64,000 nt of DNA from Candidatus Marinacidobacterales bacterium. Lineage in GTDB: Bacteria > Acidobacteriota > Vicinamibacteria > Marinacidobacterales > SMYC01. The stretch is taken from NCBI GenBank assembly GCA_965237955.1, contig OZ250169.1, forward strand, positions 1,728,001-1,792,000, in the 5' to 3' direction. Positions within the stretch are counted from its first letter, which is position 1, and each line of letters opens with the position of its first letter. The position numbers and the translations under genes are program-made. Under the pieces are notes generated by a model. That model was not told the DNA's origin. It saw nothing but the letters and a program-made list of their open reading frames with translations, and ran no database searches. Of this stretch, positions 20,108 through 62,948 are shown piece by piece.

Positions 20108-20240
20108 CTAGTCCCCTGTATCAGAACAAACTAGATAAAGCAGAGCTTGCCGAAACCATTCTAAGTGCATGAATCTTATGAATATTATGGGCTGGCGAAA
20201 AGCCTAACTTTGTATAGTAATCAAAGATCCAGGGGACTAG
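20108..20240 (+). mobile_element. 133-bp IS630-type MITE, copy A
   Basis: CTAGTCCCCTG...CAGGGGACTAG termini; five copies in window. Confidence 0.93.
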
Positions 20241-20369
20241 TCCCCTGTATCAGAACAAACTAGATAAAGCAGAGCTTGCCGAAACCCTTCTAAGTGCATG
20301 AATCTTATGAATCTTATGGGCTGGCGAAAAGCCTAACTTTGTATACTAATCAAAGATCCAGGGGACTAG
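20237..20369 (+). mobile_element. 133-bp IS630-type MITE, copy B (tandem, shares a CTAG with copy A)
   Basis: Junction ...GGGGACTAGTCCCC... Confidence 0.93.
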
Positions 20370-20484
20370 CGAGCCGGGGCCGAGTTTACGCTCTTCTCTT
20401 CAGGGAGTCCGCAGAGGCCTATGAGGCTCGGACCGGGCCAGGCAGCGCCGGCAGCGTCCGAAGAGTGGACAGCGCTGCGATCTT

Positions 20485-20727
20485 TTAGGGAATCCTTGCG
20501 GGCCAAAGCCCTCGAATGTAGATCGTGTCATCAGATACCCGGTAGTACACGATCCAGTTCTGCGCCAAGAACCAACGGTGATTTCGAAACCGGCCTTTCA
20601 TCCGGACCGGAAACATCCGCGGAAACTGCATGAGAAGCGATACCTTCTCCAGAATGATTTCGCGTTCCCGCTCCGATAACTCCAACAGGACCTCGAGAAC
20701 GCTCTCCGGCCAAAGGACCTCCGCCAT
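20485..20727 (-). CDS. RelE/ParE-family toxin
   Basis: 80 aa, LLMQFPRMFP..NWIVYYRV; coupled to upstream antitoxin. Confidence 0.75.
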   Translation of the reverse strand: MAEVLWPESVLEVLLELSEREREIILEKVSLLMQFPRMFPVRMKGRFRNHRWFLAQNWIVYYRVSDDTIYIRGLWPARIP

Positions 20728-20993
20728 CAGCGCTCGTGATTCTTGTCGCGGGACCGCCTCATGGCTTCCTTGTGGGACACCAATCGCCCTGAGCGAATGT
20801 CATCCTCTGAGCGCTCCATCATGCGTTGGAACTCTGGATCCTGCTCGATTTGGTCGAGTCGTGAATCCATATCCGCGTACAACTGAATCGCTTCGCGGAC
20901 TACGAAGCTGAGATTTCCCGCCCGATCGGCGGCTAGCTTCTCGAGCACTTCATTGGTTCGGTCATCCAGGACGAATTGGCGACGCTTCGACAT
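20727..20993 (-). CDS. RHH/CopG-type antitoxin
   Basis: RQFVLDD..LEKLA..NLSFVVREAI; DIRSGRLVSH. Confidence 0.8.
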   Translation of the reverse strand: MSKRRQFVLDDRTNEVLEKLAADRAGNLSFVVREAIQLYADMDSRLDQIEQDPEFQRMMERSEDDIRSGRLVSHKEAMRRSRDKNHER

Positions 20994-21014
20994 TGTGTTT
21001 TCCTCGCGCCTACC

Positions 21015-21058
21015 AGTTTAGCGAGATAATCATGCATAGTCAATACTATTCATGAATA
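21015..21058 (-). promoter_or_regulatory. sigma70 promoter of the TA operon with adjacent palindrome
   Basis: Minus strand TTGACT-17 nt-TAAACT; TATTCATGAATA palindrome at 21047-21058. Confidence 0.6.
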
Positions 21059-21211
21059 TTGTGCAAACATACTGAAATCCGGATACGCCGTGACCATACT
21101 GTTACTTCAGCTCGACGTGGTCGGCGCCGAGCAGGAGGCGGTTTCCCAGCTCGATGACGCCCCGCGTGGGTCGACGCGCGTACACGGAGACGATTCGAAG
21201 ACTGACGAACT

Positions 21212-21856
21212 CTAATTAATCGCGAAGCAGTAGAACAAGCCGTCGCCGCCCGTGTCCTGGAGGTTCTCCTGGCTGCAACCGCTGCTCGGGTGCGACGAGT
21301 TCCACGACGTCGGGTTCGAGCCACCGCCTTGGCGGTCGTGGTGGCCAACGAGTGCGCTACCGTTTTCTGCGTTGGTCGTCCAGTTCTGGCAGTTGGTGTC
21401 GACACTGTCCGAGCTCGCGGTGCCGTCCATCTGCGACCCCGTCAAAATATCGTGACGGTTGGGATCATCTCCACGGCCGTTGATCTTCTTGCCTTCGGCG
21501 CTGATGGAGTTTTCCTTGGAGAGCTTGTTGTTGTCGCTGTGGAGGTCCGAGACGCTCGACGCCACCTGGACGCCGTTCGCGCTGTGCCATGGGCCGGTGC
21601 CGATGCGATCCTTGGCGTTGACGCCGCCGCTACCGGTCGTGCTCAAGTAGGCGCGCCACGTTTTGCCGGTCACACCCGCGGCTTCCGCCAACGCGGTGCA
21701 ATGCGCGTCGGCGCCTTCGAGCCCGCCGAGGTTCGCGCCGTCGCCGGGTCCTTTGCCCGTGAGAAAGAAGCTCATGTCCGCGTCTTGCGCCATCATCGAA
21801 TGCGCCGCAAACGCAAACAGAGCGATCACCACCATGAAAATGAGTGCCTTCTTCAT
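21212..21856 (-). CDS. Secreted lectin-like protein (C-type lectin/endostatin-like fold)
   Basis: NLGGLEGADAHC, WRAYLS, RIGTGPW, HDILTGS, GDGLFYCFA. Confidence 0.8.
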   Translation of the reverse strand: MKKALIFMVVIALFAFAAHSMMAQDADMSFFLTGKGPGDGANLGGLEGADAHCTALAEAAGVTGKTWRAYLSTTGSGGVNAKDRIGTGPWHSANGVQVASSVSDLHSDNNKLSKENSISAEGKKINGRGDDPNRHDILTGSQMDGTASSDSVDTNCQNWTTNAENGSALVGHHDRQGGGSNPTSWNSSHPSSGCSQENLQDTGGDGLFYCFAIN

Positions 21857-21879
21857 TGAGAAACTCCTTGTTACTGACT

Positions 21880-22480
21880 GATATTACCGGAAGAGATCGT
21901 GTGACTTGGACGTGGGCGTTGGTCCAGCAGCATTGCGAGCCGCCCCCGCCGTTACCAGAATTATCGTTGGCTTGAAGTCGAAGGATGTAGTCGCCGGGCT
22001 CGCTGAAAGTTGCAGTCGTCACTGCTGTGCCGTCTTCTTTGCTGACCTCCGGCTCAGCATTCTCGAACGTCACCTCGCTCGGGCCGCGATACTTGCTCCA
22101 CGATAGCTTCACGGGCGGATCGATAGCGCGTTCAGGCCGGAAAGGGTCGACGATGACGCCGTCGTCGCTCGCCGATACTTTGAGCGTCATCGGCGCGGAC
22201 GTCGTGCCCTCGAACGACGCGGTGAAACCCATGGGCGGGCCTTGTTGGGCGGAACCCTCGAGTGCGAACCGAACCGTGGGAGGCGTGTTGTCCTGCGCCT
22301 TCTCTTGGTAGGGTTCCACTTCCCAATCCTTCTTCAAGGCCATCGGTATCTCGGTCGGCTTGTTGTTAGCGTTCAAATACCAGGTCAGCTTCTTGTTGCC
22401 GAAATCTGCCGGTACCTTGATCGTGAAGATACCCCAATTTCGCCTCGGGAGGAAGTGCGTTGGTTGTCCCTGATCGGGCC
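21880..22480 (-). pseudogene. 5'-truncated fragment of a secreted hypothetical protein with Ig/PKD-like C-terminus
   Basis: GPDQGQPTHFLPRR..WSKYRGP..PGDYILRLQAND..CCWTN; no start region or signal peptide. Confidence 0.6.
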
Positions 22481-22540
22481 CGCCCGATTGTTTGCGCCTC
22501 GCGCGGGCTTCGAGGATGATGACGCGACGCTCATACAGCC

Positions 22541-23585
22541 ATGGATCCTATCGTACACACGCTCGTCGGAGCTTCTCTCGCACAGACCGGATTACGACGC
22601 ACGACGCCGTACGCCGCCGCGGCCCTCATCGCCGGCGCGAACCTTCCCGACATCGACGTGCTCGCCACGTTCGGCGGCTCCGATTTCTCGCTTTGGTTCC
22701 GACGCGGTTGGTCGCATGGCGTGCCCGCGCTCGTGCTGCTCCCGATTCTGCTGACCGGCCTTCTCGTGTTCCTGGTCTTACCTTGCTATCTTGACCCATC
22801 CGACGCTCGACTGGATGAACAACTACGGCATGCGGTGGCTCATGCCGATCGAAGAGCGTTGGTTCTACGGCGACACGCTCTTCATCGTCGATCTTTGGAT
22901 ATGGACGACGCTCGGGGGCGTGGTGTTTCTCGCACGGGAAAGACGTCTTCCGAGCTTCGCGATGTGGGGACTCTTTGCCACGTTTGCTGGGTACATGCTC
23001 TTCACCGTTGTCCCGGGACTCCTGCCAGCGAAGATCTTCTGGTGCGCAGCGCTCGCCGGCATCCTCTTCCTTCGCTGGCGACGTGTCGGGCGGGAGGAAA
23101 CCCCATCCCGGCGACTGGCCATCGGTGCCGTAGCCGCCGTCACCATTTACGTTCTCGTCTTGAGCGCGGCGACTCGATACACACGGCGAAGCGTCGTGGA
23201 CGCGATGACAGCAACAGGAGCCACGGTCGAAACGATCATGGTGGGGCCCGTTCCCGTCACCCCGTTCGTTCGCGACGTCGTCGTGCAAACGCCGGAGGGC
23301 TACTACTACGGCCGCGCCAACCTGTGGCCGGAGTTCGAGCTCGAGCTCGCACCGCGAACGGTACCGCTTCTCGAAGACTCGCCCATCGTGCGCGCGGCGA
23401 CCGCCTCTCCTACCGTGCGCGGTTTCATGAACTGGGCGCGGTTTCCGTTCGCCGAAGTCGAGGAAACTTCGTCGGGCTACGCGGTCTATTTGAGCGACGC
23501 CCGGTATACGCGCACGCGCGGCGCGGGATTCGGGTCGGCTCGCGTCGAGATCCCGAAAGAGCGCGTCGACACCGACGGGCGATAG
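22541..23585 (+). pseudogene. Metal-dependent hydrolase (YdjM-like), broken or internally deleted near 22790
   Basis: MDPIVHTLVG, ANLPDID, RRGWSH, then THPTLDWMNNYG in another frame. Confidence 0.8.
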
Positions 23586-23589
23586 TTCG

Positions 23590-23910
23590 AAAATTGCTGG
23601 TGCTGGGTTATGGTCGCGACGCTCTCGGGGATCGGCCTCGGGTTTCTCGCGCTCGGGTTCTTGTTTCAAACCTACGCGCGTCCCATCGTCGGTCTGACGA
23701 CGTTGACTCTCGTGTTCATCGTCTACCTGGGCAGGATGCGGTTCCTGTGGCGGCTGCCGGGGAGCTTCGTCGTTCTTCTCATCGGTGGGATCCTGTCCTG
23801 GGTCTCCGGGATCGCGCCCATTGGCGACGATCCGTTGGCCCCGTTGGAGTCTATGCACCCCGCCTTGCGCTTGGCGAGACGTGGCAAGCGCTCCGCGGAG
23901 GTCAGCTCTT
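23590..23910 (+). pseudogene. Internal fragment of an NCS2-like permease
   Basis: ATLSGIGLGFLALGF..YARPIVGL..YLGRMRF..LPG; no termini. Confidence 0.5.
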
Positions 23911-23919
23911 GCCGTACCT

Positions 23920-24105
23920 ATCGATCAAATCACACGTCGCCAGCGCATCGAGCTCGGTGGTTTTCGTAAGGCGAGGAGCGGGCGGCACGTTGTCGAGCTT
24001 GTCTTTCGATATGTCGACGAGTGTCGTGTCGTAACCGTGGGCGCACCAGTGTGCGGCGATACCGGACCCCATGACGCCGGCGACGACGACTCCCAAACGT
24101 CCGAG
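23920..24105 (-). pseudogene. 3-hydroxyacyl-CoA dehydrogenase NAD-binding fragment
   Basis: GVVVAGVMGSGIA..LVDIS..LDALATCDLI. Confidence 0.6.
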
Positions 24106-24114
24106 CCGGCAGCA

Positions 24115-25527
24115 AAGAAGCACTCGTCGCACGCGCCGCGTCGTTCGAGCTCGACACGCCGTATGAGTCGCCGCCGGGCGATCCGCTCGAGCACCATGCG
24201 GCGGGGTTCGCGAAGATCCTGTGCTCGGCCGTTTTCATCACCGGTCTCGACGTCGATTTTGCGGCCGAAGCCATCGGCTACTTTTCCGCCCCGTACGAGC
24301 TGCGGAAGGAGCTCACCGATCGCAAAGTCGACCACGAGAACAAAGCCGTGCATGTCACGCTACCCAACGGCGTCGTCCGTACCGCGAAGTACTACGGGGA
24401 CCAGGGATGCGTCGCGCTTCCCGAAGGCGAAGACAGCGTCTACTTCACCCCGGTCGAGATCGAACCCAACCTTCCCGATCCGGCGGTGACGCCATGGCCG
24501 ATGGGAGACGTCCTTCCCGATGACCCCCTCCCGCCCGAGCTCGACGCGGAGAAAGTGCAGGCGGCGGTCGACGCGGCGTTCGAGCCCGCGGAAGGCCTCA
24601 CCGCCGCATTCGTGGTGACGTGGAAAGGGCGTCTCATCGGCGAACGCTACCGGGAAGGCATTACCGTGCATACGCCGCTCGAAAGCTGGTCGATGGGGAA
24701 GAGTCTCACCGCGACGCTCATGGGCATTCTCATCCATCAAGGCGAGTACGAGCTCTATCAGCCTGCGCCCGTTCCCGAATGGCAAGAGGAAGGCGATCCA
24801 CGTGGCGAGATCCGTATCGCCGACATCATGAGCATGTCGAGCGGCCTGCGATTCAGGAACATGGGTGACCCCGAGTGGGATCCTGCACTCGGCTATCCCG
24901 ATCATCTTTACGTCTACACCGGCACCGTGAACTCGTTCGAATACGCCGCGACGAGACCTCAGCAATGGCCTCCGAACACGATCGGTCGTTACCGCAACTC
25001 CGACCCCGTGCTCACGAACTATCTGGTTCGCCTCGCCGTGGAGCGTCGCGGTGACGAGTATCTGTCGTTTCCGCAACGAGAGCTCTTCAACAAGATCGGC
25101 ATCCGAAACCTCGTTGCCGAGACCGATCCCTACGGAGATTTCCTGCTTCAAGGCTACGAATTCGGCACCGGACGCGACTGGGCACGGCTGGGCAATCTTT
25201 ACGTGCAAGACGGCGTCTGGGACGGCGAGCGGATCCTGCCTGAAGGGTTCGTGGAGTTCGTGGGTACGGTTGCGCCCGCTTGGGAAGCCGACGGTCGTCC
25301 TATCTACGGAGCCCTTCTGGATCAACGGGACGGGTACTTATCCCATCCCGAAGGAGTCGTACTACATGGCCGGCGCCGGGAACCAGAAGACGATCATCAT
25401 ACCGTCCCACGACCTCGTGGTCGTTCGCCTCGGCCACTACCAGGGAGCGCAGCCGGGCGACGAAGGGCTTTCGAATGCCCTCGCGCTGTTGATGGAGGCG
25501 GTGCCGGAGAGCGCAACGTCCAGTTGA
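24115..25527 (+). CDS. Serine hydrolase (beta-lactamase/class C-like), 5'-truncated, frameshift near 25310
   Basis: SWSMGKS (SxxK), MSSGL, DWARLG.LY, FWIN..YYMAGAGNQ..IIPSHDLVVVRLG. Confidence 0.8.
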
Positions 25528-25551
25528 AGTTCTGGCCTCACGTTTCAAGGA

Positions 25552-26160
25552 GTGTTCATGACATTGAGAGTTTCGCGCCTCGCGCTCTGCGCCGCCGTCG
25601 CGTTCGTGAGCGTCGAGTGTGCGTCCACCAAGATGACCAAGAACTGGGTCTATCCGGAGCATGGGCCACTCGATTTCGAGAACATCCTCGCGATCGTGCT
25701 CGTCCAGGACTCGCTCGTGCGCCGCTCCGGCGAAGACGAGCTCGTCCGGCAAATCCGCAAAGCGAAAGCGATCGCGTCCTACACGCTCATACCGGATCAG
25801 GACATGCAGCATGAGAACCGTGTCCGGCAGGCGGTGACCGATACCGGCGTCGACGCGATCATCGTCATGCGCCCCGTCTTCGATGAGCAAGAGCTTCGCT
25901 ACGTTCCTGGCAGCTACCCGGCGGCGTACAACAGCTTCTACGGGTACTACGGGTGGGCCTATCCGGTAGTTTATTCGCCCGGCTATTTTCGCAACGACCG
26001 CATCGTCGGGGTCGAGACCAACGTTTACGACACCAGCGACGGCAAGCTGGTGTGGTCCGGTGTGAGCCAGACGACGAACCCGAAGGATACACAGAAGCTG
26101 GTCGCGGATACCGCCAAAGCGGTCCGAAGCGTGATGCGAAAGTACGGCTTTATCTCGTAG
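25552..26160 (+). CDS. Putative lipoprotein (DUF4136-like)
   Basis: Signal-like N-terminus with Cys; YYG-rich segment; ETNVYD...KLVWSG. Confidence 0.7.
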   Translation: MFMTLRVSRLALCAAVAFVSVECASTKMTKNWVYPEHGPLDFENILAIVLVQDSLVRRSGEDELVRQIRKAKAIASYTLIPDQDMQHENRVRQAVTDTGVDAIIVMRPVFDEQELRYVPGSYPAAYNSFYGYYGWAYPVVYSPGYFRNDRIVGVETNVYDTSDGKLVWSGVSQTTNPKDTQKLVADTAKAVRSVMRKYGFIS

Positions 26161-26169
26161 CGCGTCGCC

Positions 26170-28728: not shown

Positions 28729-28781
28729 GAGCGCACCTCTCTCGTTGGCGGATTCTACTGGTTTGAGTGGTGCTGCGCGAA

Positions 28782-29768: not shown

Positions 29769-29769
29769 G

Positions 29770-30492: not shown

Positions 30493-30563
30493 GCGCGGGA
30501 TGATACCAGTTGGCCGAGAATCTTACGAGGTGCCTCGCGGCGCGATATTCTGCTGAACCCGGA

Positions 30564-30705: not shown

Positions 30706-32424
30706 GGTTCTCCTGTCGTTTCGGGGGATCTGATTTGTGTTGGAGGGCATGGCCTATGGACGCTGCCGCGATTGTGGAAAACGCCGGAAACTCCGGGCGA
30801 GAGAGGCGTTTAGGGAAAGGTTGTGAGCACGTACAAACGTGGAGCGGCGTTTTCCACAATCGCTTGGAAAACGCTTCGCGTTTCCCACGAGCGCCCACAG
30901 GCCCCTCCTGATATATATACAAGAAAGATTAATTCATATGGGATAAGGAAGGGGGGGCTCGATTAGTGGAGGCTATGGAAAACGCCCTTCCAGGCTTCGA
31001 AGAGAACTCAGTCGTGAGCAAGGTCTGAACGACCAGAACCGTGGGGGCGTTTCCCACAGCCTCGTCTCCCGCTGAGGGGCAGTGGCATTTGGTGAGGCCC
31101 GTGGGTTGAGAGGGTAAGCCATGTGTAGATGCGCATCGGCGAGAACGCTAGAATCTTTTTTTCCGAAAGAGAAAAGAGCGTTCCCGCGATGCGCGTTACT
31201 ACGTTAGTCAACAAGCTCATCGGATTGCAAGGCCTGTGGGTCCGAGGTTTCCACTTCCAGGCGGACAAAGCCAGAGTGGTGGTGGATGTAGTACCACGGA
31301 GGAGGAAGCCTCTGTGCGGGATTTGCGGACGAAAGGTCCGCAAGAACAAAGATCGCTACAATCGCTACTGGCGGCACTTGGACCTGTTCGGAGTCCGGAC
31401 CTATCTTCGCTACTCGATCCGACGAGTGCTATGTCGGCGGTGTGGAGTGGTCAGAGAAAAGGTGCCTTGGGCAGACAAGGGAAGCCGCTTTACCAAAAGC
31501 TTCGAACAAGAGGTAGCGTGGCTGGCACAGAGGACGGACGTCAGCGCCGTAGCGAACTATTTCCGAGTGACGTGGCGTTCGGTGCGACGGATCATCCAGC
31601 GAGTGGTTGCCGAGCAGCGGGATGAGCGGCGCGAGCTCGATGGATTGCGGGTGATTGGGATGGACGAGATCAGCTACCGCAAACGCCACAAGTACTTAAC
31701 AGTGGTAATAGACCATCTCAGCGGCCGGGTCGTCTGGGCGGGAAAGGAGCGCAAGGCCAAGACGCTGCTGCGGTTTTTCCGCAAGCTCGGACCACAAAGA
31801 GCCGCGGAGCTCGAAGCGGTCAGCATGGACATGTGGGAGCCGTACATAACTGTCGTCGGCAAAAAGGCTCCTCAGGCACGGGTGATCTTTGACCGCTTCC
31901 ACATCGTCAAGCATCTGAACGAGGCCGTGGATAAGACCCGGCGCGAGCTGGTGCGCGAGCTCAAAGGGACTGCCCGGCGCAACCTCAAGAACACCAAGTT
32001 TCCCCTTCTCAAGGCCAAACACAACCGCAGCGCGAAAGACAAACGGGTGCTCCGCGAGCAGGTGCGAGCTAATCGTCGCCTCTACCGCGCCATGCTTCTG
32101 CGCGACGACTTCATGGACCTCTACACCTACAAAACCGAGACATGGGCCAAGAAGTTTCTCCGAGGATGGCTGCGGCGCGCTATGAGCTCGAGGATAGAGC
32201 CCGTCAAACGCGCGGCGAAGATGATCCGCAGCCACTTCGATGGCGTCATCGCGTGGGTCACGTGGAGACTCAGCAACGGCCGACTCGAAGGAATGAACAA
32301 CAAAATCCGGCTGCTGAGCCACCGCAGCTTTGGACTCCACTCTGCCGAAGCTCTCATCAGTCTCGTCTACCTAAACTGTGGCGGTCTCACCCTCGAGAGG
32401 ATCCACTGAAATGGCAGGAGAGGC
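30706..32424 (+). mobile_element. ISL3-family insertion sequence, copy 2
   Basis: Same TIRs as copy 1; 8-bp TSD ACCAAAGA (30698-30705, 32425-32432). Confidence 0.96.
31189..32409 (+). CDS. ISL3-family transposase
   Basis: Nearly identical to 6314-7531, one codon longer. Confidence 0.96.
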   Translation: MRVTTLVNKLIGLQGLWVRGFHFQADKARVVVDVVPRRRKPLCGICGRKVRKNKDRYNRYWRHLDLFGVRTYLRYSIRRVLCRRCGVVREKVPWADKGSRFTKSFEQEVAWLAQRTDVSAVANYFRVTWRSVRRIIQRVVAEQRDERRELDGLRVIGMDEISYRKRHKYLTVVIDHLSGRVVWAGKERKAKTLLRFFRKLGPQRAAELEAVSMDMWEPYITVVGKKAPQARVIFDRFHIVKHLNEAVDKTRRELVRELKGTARRNLKNTKFPLLKAKHNRSAKDKRVLREQVRANRRLYRAMLLRDDFMDLYTYKTETWAKKFLRGWLRRAMSSRIEPVKRAAKMIRSHFDGVIAWVTWRLSNGRLEGMNNKIRLLSHRSFGLHSAEALISLVYLNCGGLTLERIH

Positions 32425-37706: not shown

Positions 37707-39107
37707 ATGAAGACGAGAAGCACAACGCAGTTTGCCGTCGCGCTCGTGGCGGGGCTCTTCTTATTGAGTGGGCTGAGTGGGCTGAGTGGCTGTGGCGGCT
37801 CCGACGAAGGGGCCGCGCCTCAAGATAAAGGGGGCAAAGGTGGCCAAGGCGGCCAGCGCGGTGGTCACGGCGGCCAGCGCGGTGGTCACGGCGGCGGACC
37901 TCCGGGGATGGGCGGCGGCCCTGCTGCGGCCGCGGTGCCGGTTGAGGTCGTTGCTATCTCGCGGCGTTCGGTGTCGTCGTTTCTGCAGACGAACGGAAGC
38001 CTCGAAGCCGAGAACGACGTACAAATCGTCGCTCGTATTCAAGGACCCATCGTCGAGCTCGTCGCCGAGGAGGGCATGCGCCTCGAGAAGGGCGACCTCA
38101 TGCTCAAGATCGACGAGACCGAGACACTCGCTCAGGTCGAGATCGCCAAGGTTGGTTTGAAAGAAGGGACGCGCGCCCACGAGCGCGCCAAAGCGGCCCG
38201 CGACAGCGAGATCATCAGCCAGGAAGTTTATGACGCCGCGCTTGCGCAGCTCGAGTCTGCCGAAGCGCAGCTGATGAGCGCCGAGATCAACTACAGCTAC
38301 ACGTCAGTGAAGGCGCCGTTCGACGGTATCGTCGTCGAGCGTCTTGTGAAACTCGCAGAGAACGTGACCGCGAATCAGGAGCTTTTTCGCTTCTCCGAGT
38401 TCGATCCGCTGCTGTGCAAGATCCAGGTGCCGGAGAAAGAGCTCTCCCGACTACGCAAAGGGCAGACGGCTTACCTGAACGTCGAAGCGTGGCCGGACGA
38501 GCGTTTTCAGGCGTCGGTGTTGAGGATCAGCCCGGTCGTCGACCCGGCGACGGGAACGATCCGGGTCACGCTCCAAGTGCGCGCCCGTTCTAAGCTCAGC
38601 CCGGGAATGTTCGCGCGTGTCTTTCTGGTCACCGACACGCATGAAAGCGCCGTGGTGATGCCGAAGCGAGCGCTTTCGATTGAGAGTTTGAGCGATACCG
38701 TTTTCGTCGTGAACGACGAAGGTCAAGCAGTGCGTCGCGATATCGAGCTCGGCTACGAGGAGACCGATGTCGTCGAAGTGCTCGCGGGGCTCGAAGTGGG
38801 AGAGCGCGTCATCGTCGTCGGCCAGGACGGCCTCACCAACGGAACACCGATTCAAGTGCTCAAAGGTCCAAGTGCCGACGAAGCGCCGCGCCCAGCCCGC
38901 GCCGCGAACTTCGAGCGCCCGCCCGGCGGAGGAGATCACGCTGGCAACGGCCCCGGGCCAGGCATGGGAGGCCCGCCAGGCGGCCGCATGGATCTCTCGA
39001 ACGCCACGCCCGAACAACTCGAGCGCATCAAAAAACGCATGCGCGAGCGCGGCATGACCGACGAACAAATCGAGCAGGCCCTAGCCCGCCGCCGCCAACA
39101 ACAATAG
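37707..39107 (+). CDS. RND periplasmic adaptor (MFP) with Gly-rich extensions
   Basis: APFDGIV, SPVVDPATGT, LSPGMF; lipobox-like LSGC. Confidence 0.93.
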   Translation: MKTRSTTQFAVALVAGLFLLSGLSGLSGCGGSDEGAAPQDKGGKGGQGGQRGGHGGQRGGHGGGPPGMGGGPAAAAVPVEVVAISRRSVSSFLQTNGSLEAENDVQIVARIQGPIVELVAEEGMRLEKGDLMLKIDETETLAQVEIAKVGLKEGTRAHERAKAARDSEIISQEVYDAALAQLESAEAQLMSAEINYSYTSVKAPFDGIVVERLVKLAENVTANQELFRFSEFDPLLCKIQVPEKELSRLRKGQTAYLNVEAWPDERFQASVLRISPVVDPATGTIRVTLQVRARSKLSPGMFARVFLVTDTHESAVVMPKRALSIESLSDTVFVVNDEGQAVRRDIELGYEETDVVEVLAGLEVGERVIVVGQDGLTNGTPIQVLKGPSADEAPRPARAANFERPPGGGDHAGNGPGPGMGGPPGGRMDLSNATPEQLERIKKRMRERGMTDEQIEQALARRRQQQ

Positions 39108-39254
39108 CAATGCCGATGGCCGGCGGCCGACGGCCGATGGCGCCGCTATGAAGATTGTCAACTTCTCCGCTCGAGCGCATCGAGCGTGCTCCAGTCCGCA
39201 ACGTACAACGACAGTCATGCCGATGGCTGATGGCCGACGGCCGATGGCGCCGCA

Positions 39255-42200
39255 ATGAAAATAGTAAACTTCTCCACCCGCCGCCCCGTCACCATCCTCG
39301 TCTTTTTCATCGCAGCGGTGGTTTTCGGCGTGGTCGCATTCCGTGATCTAACCGTCGACCTGTTGCCCGAGATCACATACCCATCACTGACGGTAAAAAC
39401 AGAGTTCGAAGGCACGGCGCCGTCGGAAGTCGAAAGCCTCATCACCAAACCCATCGAGAACGCCGTCGGCGTCGTCAATAACGTCGTCCGCGTCATCTCG
39501 AGTTCGCGCTCCGACACCAGCGAAGTGACGCTCGAGTTCGGTTGGGATACCAACATGGACATGGCCGCTCTCGACGTGCGCGAGCGGTTGGATCTGGTGG
39601 TGCTGCCTGACGACGCCGAGCGTCCAGTGCTTCTCCGCTACGACCCGTCACTCGATCCGATCATGCGGCTGGGTCTTTACGGCGACGAAGATCTCATTCG
39701 CCTGCGATTGATCGGTGAGCAAGACGTGAAACGTCTTCTCGAGCGCGTGGAAGGCGTGGCTGCGGTTCTCGTGAGCGGTGGCCTCGAAGAGGAGATCCAC
39801 GTTGAGCTCGACGAACGCCGCATTGCGAATCTGGGTCTCAGCGCGAGCCAGGTCGTTTCCCGTCTTGCCGCCGAGAACGTCAACCTCACCGGCGGCCGGC
39901 TGCAAGATGGCCAGACGGAGTACCTTGTCCGCACCATCAACGAGTTCGAGCGACCCTCGGATATGCGGCACATCGTGATCGACCCCACCCGCCGCGATAT
40001 CCGTCTCGAGGACGTGGCGCGGATCAGCCGCGGTCATAAAGAACGCGAGGTCGTAAGCCGCATCGATGGGCGTGAAGCGGTGGAGATCGCTATTTACAAA
40101 GAAGGTGGGACGAACACCGTCACCGTCGCCCAGGCGGTGCAGGAGCGGGTCGTCACGCTCGAGGAGCGGCTCGAGCGGCTCGGCGAGGGACTCGAGCTGC
40201 AGTTGATCACGGACCAGTCGCGTTACATTCGCCAGTCCGTATCCGAAGTGCTGTCCACGGCGTTCATCGGTGGGAGCCTCGCGATCCTCGTTCTGATGCT
40301 CTTCCTGCGCAACATCAAGTCGACGCTCATCATCGGCGTCTCGATTCCGGTGTCGGTAATAGCGACGTTTTTCTTGATGTTCGTCTCCGGTATCTCGTTG
40401 AACATCATGTCGCTCGGCGGCATCACTCTCGGCATCGGCCTCGTCGTCGACAACTCCATCGTCGTACTGGAGGCCATCCAACGAAAACGTGAAGAAGGTC
40501 TCGGCGCCGTCGAAGCCGCTCGGAAGGGCGGTGGTGAAGTGGGTCAAGCAGTCATCGCATCCACCTTGACCACGGTGTGCGTGTTCGTTCCTATCGTCTT
40601 CGTCGAAGGCGTTGCCGGACAGCTCTTCGGCGATCAGGCGTTGACGGTGACGTTCTCGTTGACGGTGTCGCTCATCGTCGCCCTCACGTTGATCCCGATG
40701 CTGGCGTCGCGGCAGTTCGCACGGCCGCCGAAAGACGACGTGCCGGACCACCAGCGCTCTCCCGTCGGCCAGGCCGCGATTGCCGTGGTGGGTTTTATCG
40801 GTTTGTGGATTGCCAGGGTGGTGAAGTGGTCCGCGCGGGGTTTGGTCTACGTCGTGCTCGGCATTCTCTACTTCCCTTCAAAGCTTTTTCACGTCGTCTA
40901 CGGCGCTATCACCGATTTCTACCCTCGCGTGCAGGGGGCGGTGTTGAAGCGACCCGTCCCGGTGATCGGCGCGACGCTGGTCGCTTTTCTTGCCTCACTC
41001 CTTCTGGTTGGACAACTCGGAAGCGAGCTCGTCCCCGAGCTCATCCAGGGCGAATTCTTCGTGAACACAGAGCTTCCTCCCGGAACGCATCTCGAGCTCA
41101 ATGAAAAGCGCATGGCGATTCTGGAGCGGGAAGCGATGAATCTCCCCGGGGTGACGTCGGTGTATACCGTCGTCGGGTCCAGCAACGAACAGGGCGGCAC
41201 CGCCGGCGAGCTTCGCGAGAATATCGGTCAGCTCACGATGACTCTCGAGCCGCCGTCGAGTCTCGAAAGAGAGGACGCCCTGATGGAGGCGTTTCGCCCG
41301 TTGCTCGAATCGGAAGAGGACCTCCTATACCGATTCGGACGGCCGACATACTTCAGCTTCAAGACGCCCATCGAAGTCGAGATCCGCGGATTCAACTTGA
41401 GTCTTCTGAAACGTCTCGCCGAGGAGCTCATGGCACGCATGGGGCAAATCGACGGTCTCGTCGACATCAAGTCATCGACGGAAGGTGGCAACCCCGAGCT
41501 TCAGATTCGCTTCGACCGCGATCGCCTGGCGACATTGGGCTACAACGTCAACGAAGTTGCGTCGCTGGTGCGCTCGAAGGTTCTCGGCGACGTGGCCACC
41601 GACATCACCCGGGAAGATCGCACCATCGATATTCGATTGCGCGCGCAGGAACAGTTCCGCGACAGCGTTGCAGATTTGAGAAACCTCAACATCGCGCAGA
41701 CGGGCACGACGCCAATCCCGCTCGCGGCGGTGGCGTCGGTGGTGGAGACCCAGGGTCCTGCCGAAATCCGCCGCTCGGACGGCGAGCGCGCCGCGCTGAT
41801 CACGGCGAACCTCGTTGCCCGCGATCTGGCATCGGCGTCGGCAGCCATCCAAGCCGAGCTCGAAGACATGACGCTTCCGGTGGAATTCGATTGGCGGATG
41901 GGTGGCCAACAGCAGGAAATGGAAACGTCGTTCGCGAGCATGCGCTTCGCCATCCTCCTGGCGGTGTTCCTGGTCTATCTCGTCATGGCCTCACAGTTCG
42001 AATCGCTCCTGCACCCGTTCGTGATCTTGTTCAGCGTTCCGTTCTCGTTGATCGGGGTTCTCGTCACCCTCTACCTCCTGAACGTCACCGTGAGCGTCGT
42101 CGTTCTCATCGGCGTCATCATGCTCGCCGGCATCGTCGTCAACAACGCGATCATTCTCGTCGATACCACGAACCGGTTACGGCGCGAGGGCAGAGCGAAA

Positions 42201-54199: not shown

Positions 54200-54345
54200 G
54201 GGCTTTGGTGCACGAATAGCTCTTGACTCCGGCAACCGCTTCGACTGAACTTCTCGATACATCGAATATCGAGGAGATGAACCCATGGCCGCGCGCAAGT
54301 CCAGCCGAGTGAACAGCAAATACACGACGAAGTACCGCGTGACCA
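54199..54345 (+). mobile_element. Remnant left end of an IS5-family (IS903-like) element
   Basis: GGCTTTGGTGCACGAAT TIR-like end followed by MAARKSSRVNSKYTTKYRVTN, then truncated. Confidence 0.6.
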
Positions 54346-54567
54346 ATCCGACGTTTCACAGCCGATGGGCCTACGATACTTTGAGAAAAGGTGGGCGATA
54401 CTACTAGTGCCGGTCCAACTATATGGACCGAAAACCGGTGTCGCTCCGGAACGACACGCCGTTCCATTGGGCGTCGACGTTCTTAGGCGGAACAAGTTGG
54501 AACGGCACTAGTCCCATGGAACAGAAAAAGATAGACAACACCGGCCCTTCTGTGATCTGCTAAATGC

Positions 54568-55809
54568 ATGAAACACAAGGGCCGGCGAAAAGCCGAATTG
54601 AAGCTGTCGTCTCAAGAAAGCGAAGCGCTGACGCGACTGGCGCGACGCAGCCGTAGTTCGCCGCACCAAGCCTTCCGAGCGAAGATCGTGCTGGATTGCG
54701 CGGCGGGTCTGACGAATATGGAAGTTGCTAGCCCCCTGGATCTTTGATTACTATACAAAGTTAGGCTTTTCGCCAGCCCATAAGATTCATAAGATTCATG
54801 CACTTAGAATGGTTTCGGCAAGCTCTGCTTTATCTAGTTTGTTCTGATACAGGGGACTAGGAAGATGCACACCATGAGGAGCACGGTGGGCAAGTGGCGA
54901 AGACGCTTTGTAGAACAACGAATGGAAGGGTTGTACGACGAACCTCGGCCGGGAGCGGCTCGCAAAATCGGCGATGACCAGATCGAGGAAGTCCTGACCA
55001 AGACGCTGGAGACGACTCCAAAGGGGAGAACCCATTGGAGTACGCGCTCGATGGCCAAGCATCTTGGGCTGAGTCATTCGACGATTGGACGTATTTGGCG
55101 AACGTTCGGGCTTCAACCGCACCGCTCGGAATCGTTTCGTCTCTCGCAAGACCCACAACTGGTCGAAAAAGTACGCGACGTTGTTGGCCTGTATATGAAC
55201 CCACCGGATAACGCGGTCGTCCTGTGCGTCGACGAGAAATCGCAGATTCAAGCGCTCGAGCGTGCTCAACCTGTCCTGCCCATGAGCTTGGGCCAGCCCG
55301 AGCGACAAACCCACGACTACATTCGGCATGGAACGACTGACCTGTTTGCCGCACTCGACGCCGCAACAGGTGAAGTCTTCGGAAAGTGCTACGCGCGACA
55401 TCGAGCGCTAGAGTTCAAGAAGTTCCTCGCTGAGATCGAAGCAGCCGTTCCCAGCGAGTTGGACATCCACGTCGTGCTCGACAATCTCGCCACGCACAAG
55501 ACACCGGCGATCAAACGCTGGCTTTCCAAGCGACCTCGGTTCCACTTTCACTTCACACCGACACACGCCTCTTGGCTCAACTTCGCTGAGCGCTTCTTTG
55601 GCTTGCTCACCGAACACGCCTTGCGACGAGGCTCGCACACGAGCGTGCCTCAGCTCCGCGCTGCGATACAAGACTATCTCGATGCTCACAACGAGAACCC
55701 AAAGCCGTTCAAGTGGACGAAATCCGCCGACCAAATCCTCGAAACCATCGCTCGGTTCGCCCAGCGAACGCTCGATACACATGGCAAATCGAATTTGGAC
55801 AGTAATTAA
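54568..55809 (+). pseudogene. IS630 transposase split by MITE copy C
   Basis: MKHKGRRKAELKLS..RAKIVL..NMEVA|[37 protein letters not shown]; TGA inside the MITE. Confidence 0.92.
54728..54860 (-). mobile_element. 133-bp IS630-type MITE, copy C (inside the IS630 transposase)
   Basis: Reverse complement of copies A/B, flanked by CTAG. Confidence 0.93.
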
Positions 55810-55856
55810 AGATCAAGGGGACTAGGCTCCTAATGATCTCGGATCGGGGTTAGAGC

Positions 55857-57266: not shown

Positions 57267-57319
57267 CCTCGTTTCTCGCCTCGATCTTTTGAATGACCGC
57301 TTGCATCTTCTGGCGGCCC

Positions 57320-57427
57320 GAGGGTGTTGTCAAGTTGAGGGCTTCAAGGCCGATTCGACCCCAAGATATGGTCGACGGCGCATCCTCGTGCCCCCACGAT
57401 ATTGGGGCGCGATTCGGCAACTTGACA
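57320..57427. repeat. ~105-bp dispersed repeat, copy 2 (inverted relative to 15031-15138)
   Basis: TGTCAAGTTG...CAACTTGACA inverted ends; same internal motifs as copy 1. Confidence 0.8.
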
Positions 57428-57542
57428 GCAATGGCACCGCCCGTGTGGGCGGAGGTCATCGGGGAATGAACGAAATCCGTTCGTTCACTCGAAAGTACCT
57501 CGGCGGATCTACGAGTTATTCGAAGAGAACCTGAAGCCAAAA

Positions 57543-57663
57543 CGAAAAATGGGGGGCAGGCTGACTGCCTGCCCCCCAGATTTCTATCCCCGGGAGGCGG
57601 TGCGGGGGGCACCCCCCGGGGCTGGCGTCGAGATTGAGGAGCGACGCCAAATGCGTTCTCGGA
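57543..57663 (-). ncRNA. Candidate sigma54-dependent small RNA
   Basis: Consensus -24/-12 promoter upstream, stem-loop with CUCCUC loop, G/C hairpin, strong terminal hairpin plus U-tract; no credible ORF. Confidence 0.6.
57545..57578 (-). terminator. Intrinsic terminator
   Basis: Minus strand GGGGGGCAGGC-AGTCA-GCCTGCCCCCC followed by ATTTTTCGTTTT. Confidence 0.8.
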
Positions 57664-57673
57664 CACCCTTTCA

Positions 57674-57689
57674 AGCAATTGGCGTGCCA
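57674..57689 (-). promoter_or_regulatory. sigma54 (RpoN) promoter
   Basis: Minus strand TGGCACGCCAATTGCT matches TGGCACG-N4-TTGCW. Confidence 0.75.
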
Positions 57690-58017
57690 GTAACGGGTCT
57701 TCGGTGTAACTGTATATATAGCAATGGGTTATCGATGTATTGCCAAAGTCCGCCACGAGCTTCGGATTCAAATTTGAAACTGGACGTAAACTTATTACAT
57801 TTAAAAATTTAACACTTGGCGAGCTTGTGCGCGGGCTAGATCTACTTGAAGGCCCTTTATTGGGCAGGCTTGGGCGTGGCCGGGCAGTCAACGTTTAGTC
57901 GGCAAGGCCGATCGGGCACGGGCACGGGCGGTCGGGCACGACTGGAGGCTGAGCTGTCTGGTAGAATTGAGGTACACCACAACTACGTCACACGTCCTGA
58001 ACGCTGGGCGCTCCCCG

Positions 58018-59594
58018 ATGAACCAGCAGGTCGCAGAAGCTTTCAAGAAGCTCTACTTCGGCAAGCGCACCGGTGTGCTTACGTGTGAGGCGGACGCGGC
58101 GCGCCGCGCGGTCTACTTTCAGTCCGGGTTCGTCGTGAGCGCTTCCTCGAGCCTGGAGCAGGATCGGCTTGGCGAAGTCATGATCCGCCACGGTCGCATC
58201 ACTCAACAGCAGTTCGAAGATGCATCGCACTTCATCAAGAGCGGTTGGAAGCTGGGCGAGATCCTGGCCGAGCTGAGCGTTATCGATGAGGAAGAGATCG
58301 AGTCTTTCGTGCGGCTCCAGCTTCTCGACATCGCGTGCACGCAACTCATTCGCCCGCCCAAGCGGCTGTCGTTTGCGGCTCTTAGCGGAGTCGACGCCTA
58401 CCTCGAGGCGCCGCTTTCGGTCGCCGACATTCTCATGGAGGCGGCGCGCCGCACTCCCAAGCTCGGGTCGAAGCTCAGAGCGCTCAAGGGGGGAAAACGC
58501 AAGCTCGGGTTCCCGAGCGACCCCCTCAAACGTTTCCAGGACGTCAACCTGCAACCCGAAGAAGCGTTCGTACTGTCACGAGTGGACGGAACGCAGACCC
58601 CGAGGGACATTTTCGCGGTGAGCCCGCTGTCCGAGGAGCAGACCGCTCGTACTTTGCTGGGCCTGCTCGAAGCTCAGCTCATCGAGCCCGAAGGCACCGA
58701 TGTCGTCGAGCCCAAAGTGACCGAAGTCGAGGCAGCCGAACCAGAAGATGACGTCGACACCAGCCAAACGCTGAGGCGGGGCGAGCAGCGTGACCGCGAG
58801 CGTGCGTCCGTCGAGCGGCTCTACCAGGAAGTCCAATTCCAAGATCATTGGCAGGTCCTTTCGATCGATCGGGGAGCGTCTTCGGAGATGATCAAGGAAG
58901 CTTTTTTTAGCGGTGCGAAGGCCTACCATCCCGACATGTTTCGCCATATTACGGAGCCCGAGTTCCAAGAGAAGCTGTCGTTCATCTTTCAACGGATCAA
59001 CGAGGCGTACGAAACGCTTTCTTCGAACGATCCATGGAGCGTTACGAGTCGCTTCGAGCGAAAGAAGAGCTCTACGCCCAATCCCAGCAGGGTCCCCCGT
59101 CGCCCGCATCGAGGGCAGCGTCGCGAGGGAAACCAAGCGATGTCGCCAGCCTGTTCCACCGCGCACATCTGGCGTTCGATAGCGAGGACTTCTGGAGGTG
59201 CATCGAGCTCTCGCGCGAAGCCGTCGACCTCGCACCCGATTGCGCCGCCTACTACAACCTACTCGGCCTGGCTCTAGCCAAGAACCCGAAGTGGCGTCAG
59301 GACGCCGAGAAAAATCTGAAGATCGCGGCGAACCTGGATCCCTTCAAAGCGTCCTACGTCTTAGAGCTAGTCCCCTGTATCAGAACAAACTAGATAAAGC
59401 ATAGCTTGCCGAAACCATTCTAAGTGCATGAATCTTATGAATCTTATGGGCTGGCGAAAAGCCTAACTTTGTATAGTAATCAAAGATCCAGGGGACTAGC
59501 GAAACTCTACGAGAGAGCTGGCCTGCACCTGAGAGCCCAAAAAACGCTCGAGAAGGCCCAAGCGATCGATCCGACGGTAGAAGGGCCGGAGTAG
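58018..59594 (+). pseudogene. DUF4388-like + DnaJ-like (HPD) + TPR protein; frameshift near 59030 and MITE insertion at 59367
   Basis: RTGVL..RAVYF..G.VV.ASS..DRLGEV; KAYHPD..FQRINEAYETLS; YYNLLGLAL; C-terminal AKLYERAG resumes after the MITE. Confidence 0.8.
59367..59499 (+). mobile_element. 133-bp IS630-type MITE, copy D
   Basis: CTAG-flanked, near-identical to copy A. Confidence 0.93.
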
Positions 59595-59607
59595 GCCGCT
59601 GCTGCAA

Positions 59608-61020
59608 CTAGCCTTCTTTCTCATACTGCTTTAGCTTCCGCCAAAGCGTCGCCGTCGTAATACCGAGTCGTCGCGCGGTGTTCTTGCGGCTGCCACTACA
59701 CTCCGCGAGCACTTCGAGGATGTACTCCTTTTCGAGCTCGGACAGCGTGAGCGAGCTCTGTCGGGCGTGGTCGATGACCCGATCTTCGTTGCGATCGGAC
59801 TCGCCAAAAGGTAGGTCGTCCATCCCGAGGATGCCGTCTCGATCGAGAGCCGCGGCCCGTTCGATAATGTTCTCGAGCTCGCGCACGTTGCCCCGCCACG
59901 TCTGCTTCAACAGAAGGTCCATGGCTTGCGGTGAGATCGCGGGCGGCTGCGCTTTGCCCATCCGCTCGGCGATGCGCCGCACGAAGTGTTGCGCGAGAGG
60001 CGGAATATCGTCGCGTCGTGCGCGTAGCGGAGGGAGCTCGATGGGAATGACGTTGAGGCGATAGAAGAGATCCTCGCGGAAGTCGCGGTCCGCGACGCTT
60101 TTCTCTAGGTCGCGATTCGTCGCGGCGATGATGCGAACGTCGAGGTTGCGACTCGCGGTCGTTCCCACGCGGCGGACTTCGCCGTTTTGCAGGAAGCGCA
60201 ACATCTTGACTTGCGCCATCTGAGTCAGCTCGCCCACCTCGTCGAGAAACGCGGTGCCGCCGTGGGCTTCGTCGAAGAGCCCGCGTTTGTCGGCGTAGGC
60301 TCCGGTGAACGCGCCTTTCGTGTGGCCGAAAAGTTCACTTTCCTGCAGGTTCTCCGGAATCGCACCGCAGTTCACGATAACGAGGGGCTTGTCTTTCCTC
60401 GGTGAGAGCTGGTGGAGCGCTCGCGCGACGAGCTCCTTTCCGGTGCCGCTTTCTCCGGTGATGAGCACGGTGGATTCGAGTCGAGCCACCTGGTCGACCA
60501 TCTTCAATACGTCGTTCATCGCCTGTGACGTGCACACGATTTCCTCGAATGGGTGTTGACCGCGAACGGCTTGCTCGAGCAGTCGAACGCGTTGCGTCAA
60601 TCCCTTGCGTTCGAGCGCGCGCCCCGCGACGAGGGTAAGCTCCTCTGGCTGGAACGGCTTGGTGAGGTAGTCGTAGGCGCCGGACTTGATAGCTTCGACG
60701 GCTCCTTCGATCGTCCCGTAGGCCGTCATCACCACGACTTCGGTGTCGGGAAAGAGCTCCTTGCTGCGGGTGAGCACGTCCATGCCGCTCATACCGGTGA
60801 GGCGCATATCGGTGATGACGAGGTCGAAGGGCTTCTTGTACAGGTACTCGAGCGCCTGCTCGCCGCTTTCCGCAGACTCCACCGTGTAGCCTTCACGGCG
60901 GAACGTGATGACCATCGACTCGCGGATGGGCGCCTGGTCGTCGACGACGAGGACAGACACACTTTGGACCGATTCCTCGGACGTGTCCTCAGCGACGGAT
61001 CTCGATCGGTTGGTGCTCAT
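59608..61020 (-). CDS. sigma54-dependent response regulator (NtrC/AtoC family)
   Basis: REC domain; GESGTGKE; GAFTGA; WRGNVREL; Fis-type HTH. Confidence 0.95.
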   Translation of the reverse strand: MSTNRSRSVAEDTSEESVQSVSVLVVDDQAPIRESMVITFRREGYTVESAESGEQALEYLYKKPFDLVITDMRLTGMSGMDVLTRSKELFPDTEVVVMTAYGTIEGAVEAIKSGAYDYLTKPFQPEELTLVAGRALERKGLTQRVRLLEQAVRGQHPFEEIVCTSQAMNDVLKMVDQVARLESTVLITGESGTGKELVARALHQLSPRKDKPLVIVNCGAIPENLQESELFGHTKGAFTGAYADKRGLFDEAHGGTAFLDEVGELTQMAQVKMLRFLQNGEVRRVGTTASRNLDVRIIAATNRDLEKSVADRDFREDLFYRLNVIPIELPPLRARRDDIPPLAQHFVRRIAERMGKAQPPAISPQAMDLLLKQTWRGNVRELENIIERAAALDRDGILGMDDLPFGESDRNEDRVIDHARQSSLTLSELEKEYILEVLAECSGSRKNTARRLGITTATLWRKLKQYEKEG

Positions 61021-62244
61021 CGGAACTCGATTCTGAACTCATGGGAAATCTCAATCGGAACGCGCTTCCTCGTCCCTCTTCGCTTTCTACTTCGACCTCG
61101 CCGGCATGTGCTTCGACGACGCGGTGCACGATCGCGAGGCCCAGCCCGGTGCCATCGGCCTTCGTCGTGTGGAAAGGCTGAAAAATTTTGTCTCGCTCGC
61201 TCGCGAGAATACCTTTGCCGGTATCAGCGACGACGATTTCGAGAAAATCGCCACCCTTCGTCGAGCGACTCACTTCCACCCGAATCTCGCCGCCCTTGGG
61301 CATGGCTTCGACCGCGTTCACGAGTAGGTTCCAAAGCGCTTCGCGGGTCTGCGCCGAGTCGAGCGGGACTTTCGGCAAACCGGGCTCGTACTCTTTTTCG
61401 ATTCGGATCTCGCTTTTGCCCGTTTGTTCTTGGGACAGCAGAAGGAGCAGGTCGTCGAGGACGTCGGTCACGTGCTCCGGCATCTTGTGAATGGGCCGCG
61501 GTCGTGCGAACCGGAGAAAATCGGCGACGATATCTTCGAGGCGTTGCGATTCATCGTTGACGACTTCGAGGCGGCGGCGATCGTCGCCGTGTAGATCTAA
61601 ATCGCGCCGGAGAACGCCCACCGAGTTCGAGATTGCGCCTAGTGGGTTTCGAATCTCGTGCGCGATCTGCGCTGCCAACTCACCGATCGCAGCGAGCCGC
61701 TCCGAACGGATCAGTTTCTCCTGCGTCTCCTTCAGCTCCTCGTACGCGCGCCGAGTCTCCTGGAAGAGCTCGCGATAGCGTTTTTCGGATTCCCGCAGTC
61801 GCGCCGTCCGCTCACGCACTTTCCTTTCGAGTGAGCGCTGGTAGTCTTCGTTTTCGGCCTCGAGTCGACCTTTTTCACGTAGAAGCGCGTTCCGCTCGCC
61901 CGCTCGACGACGGCAAGGAGCACCGGACGAGTGACGGGCTTGGTGATGTAGTCGTAAGCGCCTTCTTTGAGAGCCTCGACCGCGGTGGATAAGTCTGGAT
62001 GGCCGGTGACCATGACCACGCTCATGGTCTCGTCGTGTTCGGCTGCAAAACGAAGCAGCGATAATCCGCTCTCTTGCGGGAGCATGAGGTCGGTAAGCGC
62101 GACGTCGAATCGCTTCTCCGCGAGATGTGTCTTGGCCTCGTTGAAGCTCGACGCGGCAACGACCTCATGGCCCTCCAGTTCGAGGACGTCCTGAAAGGTT
62201 GCTCGGACGGTCTCTTCGTCGTCGACGATCAGTATCGATGGCAC
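60989..62244 (-). CDS. Receiver-fused histidine kinase, frameshift near 61890
   Basis: N-terminal REC (ILIVDD..TDL..KP); IAHEIRNPL, NLLVNA, DTGKGI, GTGLGL. Confidence 0.88.
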
Positions 62245-62324
62245 GGAGTTGCTCGGTTAGACTTGGTAGGAAGAGATTAGCATTTCGACGTCTGGCGGTG
62301 CAAAAAAAGAGGAGGTAGCTGACC

Positions 62325-62663
62325 GTGGCCTGGATCCGTCCGATTTCGGAAGACGAGGCAACCGGGGATCTCCGTCAGGTTTCCGAAGATGACCAGCTCG
62401 TCGAGCGAGTCAAAAAGGATCCGACCACCGCCGAGCTGACGCCGCGTCAGCGCGCTATCGTCGACTTTGCGATCAAGCTCACCGTAGCGCCAAAGGACGC
62501 ACGCCGTGAGGATTTGGATCCACTGAGAGCGCACGGCCTGGCCGACGATGACATCTTCATGCTCGTCCACGTCATCGGCTACTTCAACCACATCAACCGC
62601 GTGGCCGACGGACTAGGTATCGACTTGGAACCGGGTATGGGACCCTCTCCGTATCTGGAATGA
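62325..62663 (+). pseudogene. Peroxidase-related / CMD (AhpD-like) protein with probable internal deletion
   Basis: MAWIRPISEDEATGDL joined directly to the C-terminal half (FAIKLT..YFNHINRVADGLG); central Cys motif absent. Confidence 0.65.
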
Positions 62664-62671
62664 TTTTGAAG

Positions 62672-62777
62672 GCCATCTGCCGTCAGCCGTCAGCCAGAAA
62701 AGCGCTTTGCCGAACGCCCGAAGGCCGACTCAAGACTCGGCACGGCGTTCAGCTGCTGATGGCCGATGGCCGATGGC
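62672..62777. repeat. Palindromic REP-like element of 7-mer repeats (GCCGTCA / GATGGCC)
   Basis: Arms 62672-62694 and 62755-62777; related arms at 39111-39250 and 49423-49440. Confidence 0.7.
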
Positions 62778-62815
62778 GGATCAATCCCCATGTAGCTACG
62801 CTCTCATAATAGACG

Positions 62816-62948
62816 CTAGTCCCCTGTATCAGAACAAACTAGATAAAGCAGAGCTTGCCGGAACCCTTCTAAGTGCATGAATCTTATGAATATTATGGGC
62901 TGGCGAAAAGCCTAACTTTGTATAGTAATCAAAGATCCAGGGGACTAG
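62816..62948 (+). mobile_element. 133-bp IS630-type MITE, copy E
   Basis: CTAG-flanked; inserted in the last codons of the HAD gene. Confidence 0.93.

Follow-up and report, generated by a model that had tools for sequence, protein, structure and literature searches.

A young IS630-family miniature element inserted at CTAG sites in a Marinacidobacterales genome

A 133-bp repeat in the window

We have analysed a stretch of 64,000 nucleotides (hereafter the window: positions 1,728,001 to 1,792,000 of contig OZ250169.1, assembly GCA_965237955.1) from a Candidatus Marinacidobacterales bacterium, in which a 133-bp repeat bounded by CTAG occurs five times. A previous sequence-only reading had described these five copies as a MITE (miniature inverted-repeat transposable element), and they have been confirmed in place and orientation, being 96–100% alike with CTAG at both ends in 5/5. 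Two of them form a tandem pair on the plus strand, at 20108–20240 and 20237–20369 (the CTAG at both ends included), which adjoin at a common CTAG and stand upstream of a 40-aa open reading frame (ORF), 7 bp from its ATG. The third, at 54728–54860 on the minus strand, sits within the transposase gene of an IS630 insertion sequence (IS), at the CTAG of IS630 position 221; the broken element spans 54508–55825 on the plus strand and matches NF033545 with 266.6 bits over 54865–55806. The fourth (59367–59499, plus strand) is intergenic between convergent neighbours, namely the genes for a DnaJ-domain protein and a sigma-54 response regulator. The fifth (62816–62948, plus strand) lies at the 3' end of a minus-strand ORF for a HAD-family phosphatase (62829–63563), the last ~39 codons of which are read from the repeat. 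Actually, only the copies at 54728 and 62816 are in coding DNA, while three had been counted before.

The repeat is short, without a transposase, and, as had been noticed, AT-rich in a GC-rich host (~41% G+C vs 60% for the window and the genome). Its terminal inverted repeats are perfect over the first 8 bp (inside the TA) and match at 20/30 positions overall. In the second copy of the tandem pair, for example, the left end (20237–20269, plus strand) comprises CTAG and the imperfect terminal inverted repeat, counted by eye, with a predicted hairpin; the right end is at 20336–20369 (plus strand), and a duplicated 9-mer lies at 20298–20315 (plus strand). This 9-mer duplication, also recorded earlier, is reduced to a single unit in five 124-bp copies of the genome. 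The net gain per insertion is 129 bp, in agreement with the earlier figure, as the read joint skips exactly 129 with 4 letters common. A kept downstream frame had been deduced from this number; the point is moot, since the consensus carries stops in 6/6 frames and 129 = 3 × 43 rescues nothing. The longest possible read-in is 39 codons, so that only C-terminal tails can be supplied. An RPE-like in-frame coding repeat, or an in-frame fusion, is excluded by the same stops.

Genome-wide census and empty sites

In the genome of 8.13 Mb, 118 copies have been found by BLAST, dispersed and uniform. The mean distance to the consensus is 1.2% over 106 copies of 133 bp, and among the 105 copies aligned at exactly 133 bp, 21 are identical to the consensus. 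CTAG is present on both sides in 113/118; three copies have CTGG on the left, and one end was not recovered in two. The expectation of a large family has thus been borne out, and the copies are not confined to the window, but the density of the window does not hold genome-wide: extrapolation from it gives ~950 copies, an overshoot of about eightfold. Among 127 64-kb bins the window is the densest, and no other bin has five copies (expected 0.93). The MITE occupies 115 of 7709 CTAG sites (1.5%), or 164 sites (2.1%) are occupied if IS630 and a second MITE described below are counted. CTAG itself is under-represented in this genome (observed/expected 0.64), and the target pool is therefore limited to ~7700 sites.

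For 34 of the 118 copies a paralogous stretch spans the junction, and in 17 of these it is at least 97% identical. These near-identical empty sites hold a single CTAG in 16 cases and CCAG in one. Among public assemblies of close strains, runs X2, X4 and X5 (from three studies) show an empty site at 20108, which is filled in X1, and run X6 shows one at 62816; as these states come from contigs, they show the presence of the empty form but not its frequency. In run X6, 250 other letters stand in place of 59367–59597. The single CTAG at empty sites, both in paralogous DNA and in close strains, indicates that the copies are insertions. Together with the census and the flanks, these sites support what had been proposed from the window, i.e., a MITE specific for CTAG, recently spread and forming a large family. 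In addition, two pairs of copies in the genome share their site and private substitutions inside larger repeated units, as expected of passenger movement.

A resident IS630 element with matching ends

The autonomous partner, of which the MITE at 54728 interrupts one copy, escaped the sequence-only reading. By a search with the terminal motif we have found 38 full copies of this resident IS630 at 99.3–100% identity, 1189 bp long including both CTAG, and 34/38 hold a 370-aa transposase ORF. The transposase matches NF033545 with 282 bits (cut-off 100), contains DDE_3 (PF13358) and N-terminal helix-turn-helix domains, and has the D-D35-E spacing (DD35E), counted from the sequence. This element is the likely source of transposase in trans. 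Its best relatives outside the order are 46–71% identical. Only one other IS630-like family has been found in the genome, with 4 copies, 26% identity and no matching ends.

The left part of the MITE agrees with the first 93 bases of the IS630 at 66/93 positions (an alignment count), through the transposase start codon, at which, in the same alignment, the 9-mer duplication falls. The right end agrees with the last 34 bases at 30/34 positions. That is, the MITE is composed of the left ~100 bp and the right ~34 bp of an IS630 relative. As the left end is only ~71% like the resident IS630, we infer that the MITE would be an internal-deletion product of a relative of the resident element, not of a resident copy itself. 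No closer IS630 parent has been found in this genome. In run X1, one contig joins IS630-like sequence at window position 20207, a loose contig end, and as a lead only, this suggests a variant IS630 whose last ~34 bp may equal those of the MITE in that community. The 54728 copy uses the same IS630 CTAG as another genome copy, in the opposite orientation, so the two IS630-internal insertions are independent.

The second MITE measures 166 bp and has 15 full copies (e.g., L004:93-258). Its inverted ends are long, its CTAG-flanked termini are those of the 133-bp MITE, and its relatives occur at 74–94% identity in 17/54 other genomes of the order. One copy of it with a TTAG flank encloses an element that we take to be IS256-like.

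Bases 5–12 from the ends of the MITE and the IS630 vary more than the interiors (IS630: 6/16 vs 23/1165; MITE: p=0.04). The same changes are met again at either end of both elements, against differing backgrounds, and one of them turns the right end of the MITE into the left-end sequence of the IS630. This may be due to conversion between the ends, to the trapping of copies with damaged ends, or to sequencing error. Methylation-type sequencing error as the cause of copy differences is unsupported, as CCWGG sites in six repeat families are no more variable than other sites (2/65 vs 206/7027); the value for GATC is higher (13/148).

Target site

CTAG is also used by the IS630 and by all 15 full copies of the 166-bp MITE. 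Beyond CTAG there is only a mild G/C preference nearby (G at −1: 0.51 vs 0.34), and a longer target consensus has been rejected on this ground. Seven of the 118 copies abut the end of another catalogued MITE or IS630. According to its title, as it stands in a reference list, a 1991 study by Tenzen and Ohtsubo gives TA within CTAG as the IS630 target.

By family membership, the true duplication is likely TA within CTAG, and the element would be 127 bp long (20240–20366 in the second tandem copy); the duplication of the whole CTAG, as read earlier, is probably incorrect. ISY100, a member of the IS630 family, is reported to move in vitro by cut and paste with TA duplication, for which 30-bp ends suffice (PMC2170065).

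Insertions in and between genes

Genes were called by a simple hexamer model on the genome with the elements removed, which is crude and labels the 54728 site as intergenic. Leaving out one truncated copy and merging two tandem pairs, there are 115 distinct sites, of which 43 are coding, 16 are in TAG stop codons and 56 are intergenic, while the numbers for unoccupied CTAG are 3897, 621 and 3029. Coding sites are depleted (p=0.003), and the depletion is stronger in the first 80% of genes, where 24/115 MITE sites fall against 3034/7547 CTAG (40%, p=2e-5). Of the 43 coding sites, 19 are in the last fifth of the gene, and TAG stop codons are slightly enriched (16/115 vs 621/7547, p=0.04). The depletion in gene bodies is the pattern of purifying selection.

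We further scanned both halves of 12 mid-gene insertions against Pfam. Compatible domains have been found on either side in 5/12, and on one side or none in the rest. Among the split genes, one insertion divides a SpoIIM-family domain at profile positions 88/92, and another parts the receiver from the ATPase domain in a sigma-54 response regulator.

Beside the tandem pair, the gene at 19302–20101 (minus strand) looks decayed, with a signal-peptide-like 40-aa ORF out of frame with the remainder, and close strains differ in this gene by a 2-bp and a 9-bp indel.

Distribution in other genomes

Among 54 other genomes of the order, the MITE has been found in seven, which belong to five other genera and two families, with full-length matches at 86–98%. 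It is abundant only in the present genome: each relative has 2–16 scored matches (at most 40 first-look candidates vs 202 here). It was found in 0/28 genomes of the third family of the order, and in 0/400 genomes drawn from the phylum, with 2 candidates per genome scored. Searches of plasmids and phages by blastn gave no MITE match, and exact-pattern scans of viral and metagenome contigs gave 0 each, though variants would escape exact patterns. For one protein of the window, the acidobacteria are the commonest phylum in 7 of 10 Atlas rows, a weak sign that the host likely belongs to them.

The best MITE copies in the two genomes of the other family reach 95% identity, against 74% for the best dnaK match and only 84–85% for the older 166-bp MITE. 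We have examined 25 copies in the relatives, a part of all matches, and for 15 of them the adjoining DNA matches this genome at 90% identity or more. Nine of the 25 occupy, in either orientation, one of two CTAG sites that lie a short way upstream of rve_3-type transposase genes; this genome, too, has a copy at each of the two sites. The MITE in relatives is mostly inside shared insertion sequences. In addition, genomes G018 and G023, of different families, share a ~1.4-kb sulfatase-gene segment at 99.7% identity in which their MITE copies are identical; it has IS-like repeats at its edges and unrelated DNA beyond.

Among the seven MITE-bearing relatives, a close IS630 was found in G012 only (88% at the DNA level, with one stop, plus a fragment), 7 candidates per genome being scored. 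The relative copies carry A20 in 16/19 and C29 in 15/19, which are the states of the IS630, while only 4 and 6 of 106 copies in this genome do so. This indicates that the burst arose from a derived variant, with T14, C20 and T29 in its left end. Since the kin are not independent and only one genome shows a burst, the association of the burst with the partner is no more than suggestive.

Origin and mobilisation

Judging from the shared ends and the co-resident transposase, we consider that the 133-bp CTAG-inserted repeat is very probably a MITE cut and pasted in trans by the resident IS630 transposase, likely with duplication of the central TA. It would have originated by internal deletion from an IS630 relative ~70% like the resident element at the left end. 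The resident transposase would then bind the ~30-bp MITE ends, excise the element and insert it at TA within CTAG. Copies may be gained by donor-site repair or by a jump ahead of the replication fork, the usual routes by which cut-and-paste elements multiply. As CTAG would be restored on both sides by each insertion, the element makes its own targets, from which tandem pairs and MITE-IS630 abutments may result. Selection would purge most copies that truncate genes early. Between genera, the MITE may cross as a passenger in other insertion sequences and burst only where a matching transposase is abundant.

On the other hand, several points weigh against this explanation. The partner has been assigned by likeness of the ends and co-occurrence only, and the ~71% likeness of the left end means that the resident element is not the direct parent. 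Per-base diversity is 1.17% in the MITE vs 0.19% in the IS630, about six times higher, so the spread may partly predate this IS lineage, unless coding constraint masks the age of the IS. Flanks are nearly all CTAG here and in related IS630s of other taxa, which TA and CTAG duplication fit equally. The absence of a close IS630 from most relatives means that it was not found among the candidates scored. The copies are not enriched in repeated DNA of this genome (25/115 vs 1858/7547, p=0.51), and a preference for mobile DNA within it is thus unsupported. For a comparable system, the RUP repeat, Croucher et al. obtained no clear evidence of higher mobility through the proposed IS630 partner (PMC3049150).

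Some of these points would suit a burst driven by the true IS630 parent, since lost, with the resident IS630 a bystander. The imperfect left end, the higher diversity of the MITE, the X1 contig with its suggested variant and the few copies at different sites in relatives without a close IS630 all fit such a history. However, no such parent has been found in this genome, the right end matches that of the resident element at 30/34 positions, 21/105 copies equal the consensus, two window sites are empty in close strains, and the only genome in which intact IS630 copies are numerous is also the one with a high MITE copy number, so that we regard a lost parent as unlikely. A duplication of the whole CTAG by a transposase of another family, which would make the element 125 bp long, is highly improbable. 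Such a 4-bp duplication is modelled on the habits of IS5-, IS4- and IS701-like elements. The CTAG flanks of 113/118 copies and the single CTAG at empty sites fit either reading, but the transposase of the element whose ends match is of the IS630 family, one 166-bp copy has TTAG on one side and CTAG on the other, the sole flank favouring TA over CTAG duplication, and the IS630 family is described as duplicating TA (PMC2170065).

Alternatively, the repeat might serve the host in regulation, as a structured RNA, promoter or terminator, and be retained for that reason, not being mainly a parasite. It does fold better than shuffled sequences on both strands (z −4.5 and −3.5), retains the IS630 leader region with one weak terminator-like hairpin, and is slightly enriched in TAG stop codons. 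Yet the fold rests largely on the terminal repeats, the sites are strain-specific, and the enrichment at stop codons and 3' ends is as predicted by the survival of harmless insertions. An Rfam scan of the window returned three tRNAs only, without a MITE match, and no sigma-70-like promoter was present in the single copy scanned. Orientation bias is found neither in genes (23/44), nor toward nearby starts (16 vs 11, p=0.44), nor between strands (56/62), and an outward promoter or orientation bias has been rejected from these counts and that scan. A regulatory role is thus highly improbable. As for the spread between genera and families, but not the burst, mis-binned or chimeric metagenome assemblies offer another explanation, as the genomes have 2–6% estimated contamination and long-read assemblies can misjoin at repeats. 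We think this improbable: the copies are placed inside contigs of megabase size (one contig each for G015 and G018, three for G021), they have their own substitutions and occupy many different sites, and the piece shared by G018 and G023 is short, with IS-like repeats at its edges and unrelated DNA beyond.

Returning to mobilisation by the resident IS630, we find it plausible, and slightly favoured on present evidence, that the MITE also moves between bacterial families as a passenger. It would land at CTAG upstream of the transposase genes of other insertion sequences or in IS-bounded cargo, remain at few copies without a matching transposase, and exceed 100 copies where intact IS630 is abundant, the bursting lineage being derived.

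Other repeats and features nearby

The genome is rich in repeats: with these elements removed, 19% of bases are in 25-mers present at least 3 times. Several IS families have 13–77 near-identical copies, and many of them occur at 95–100% in other genera or families. An ISL3-family element is found twice in the window (~5831–7546 and 30706–32424), with 53 near-full copies genome-wide. Further small elements with related termini are at G000:C1:7466461, 4099904, 7122708 and 2559500; three copies among them share right-end-like sequence, and one, of ~220 bp, is 92% like one beside an IS630 in G021. The window also has an inverted repeat pair at 15030–15138 and 57320–57428 (109 bp, 94%), a local 85-bp direct repeat at 39089–39280, and high contig depth near 57370–57686 in several runs. 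At 20485–20993 (minus strand), two adjacent ORFs of 88 and 80 aa resemble a type II toxin-antitoxin pair, the 80-aa ORF giving a weak ParE match below the cut-off (E 0.003).

Relation to known systems and significance

Overall, the repeat is a young IS630-family MITE, a kind of element that is already known. The novelty raised earlier would be limited to the sequence, with no Rfam match in the window, and does not extend to the kind. No publication has been recognised as describing the 133-bp element, as judged mostly by titles and abstract openings. Among published descriptions, the nearest system is RUP with IS630-Spn1. Like the MITE, RUP is described as AT-rich, with ~110 copies per genome, a TA target and a co-resident IS630-like element with similar ends, and it inserts into IS elements and inactivates transposases (PMC2229807, PMC3049150). 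By description, not by sequence, the MITE differs in its host phylum, in length (133 vs 107 bp) and in its strict CTAG context. RUP is portrayed as largely intergenic and slow-moving, whereas ~43/115 MITE sites are within predicted genes and close strains differ in their sites.

Similar to the resident element, IS630 of Shigella and ISY100 of Synechocystis are characterised by an IS630/Tc1/mariner DDE transposase, terminal inverted repeats and TA duplication (PMC2170065). They are autonomous, while the MITE is a non-autonomous derivative. MITEAba12 with ISAba12 in Moraxellaceae is also comparable in its published outline, with a co-resident IS with matching ends, six-frame stops, presence in two genera and hitchhiking on larger mobile DNA, but it is related to another IS family, makes a 9-bp duplication without a fixed target, and occurs in one family at few copies per genome (PMC6382973), against six genera in two families and 118 copies in one genome here. 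A census of prokaryotic MITEs reports hundreds of copies per genome and IS630-derived MITEs including MITEEc1, and states that 97.4% of MITEs are within one genus and ~90% are intergenic (bioRxiv 10.1101/2024.01.18.576219). In contrast, the present MITE crosses a family boundary at 95% identity and is often in genes, though the sequence list of that census may hold it.

A MITE with an IS630 partner is ordinary. The value here is a clean natural case, in which both partners are present and intact. The fixed 4-mer target makes it possible to count what share of sites is occupied, and close strains segregate for filled and empty alleles. With this case, selection against insertions can be estimated directly, and mobilisation in trans, which for RUP has only been inferred, can be tested simply. 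If the sharing across families holds, it would be an exception to the confinement of MITEs to single genera that has been reported, a caution for assigning viruses or contigs to hosts by MITEs, and an example of the spread through a community of an element without transfer or transposition genes.

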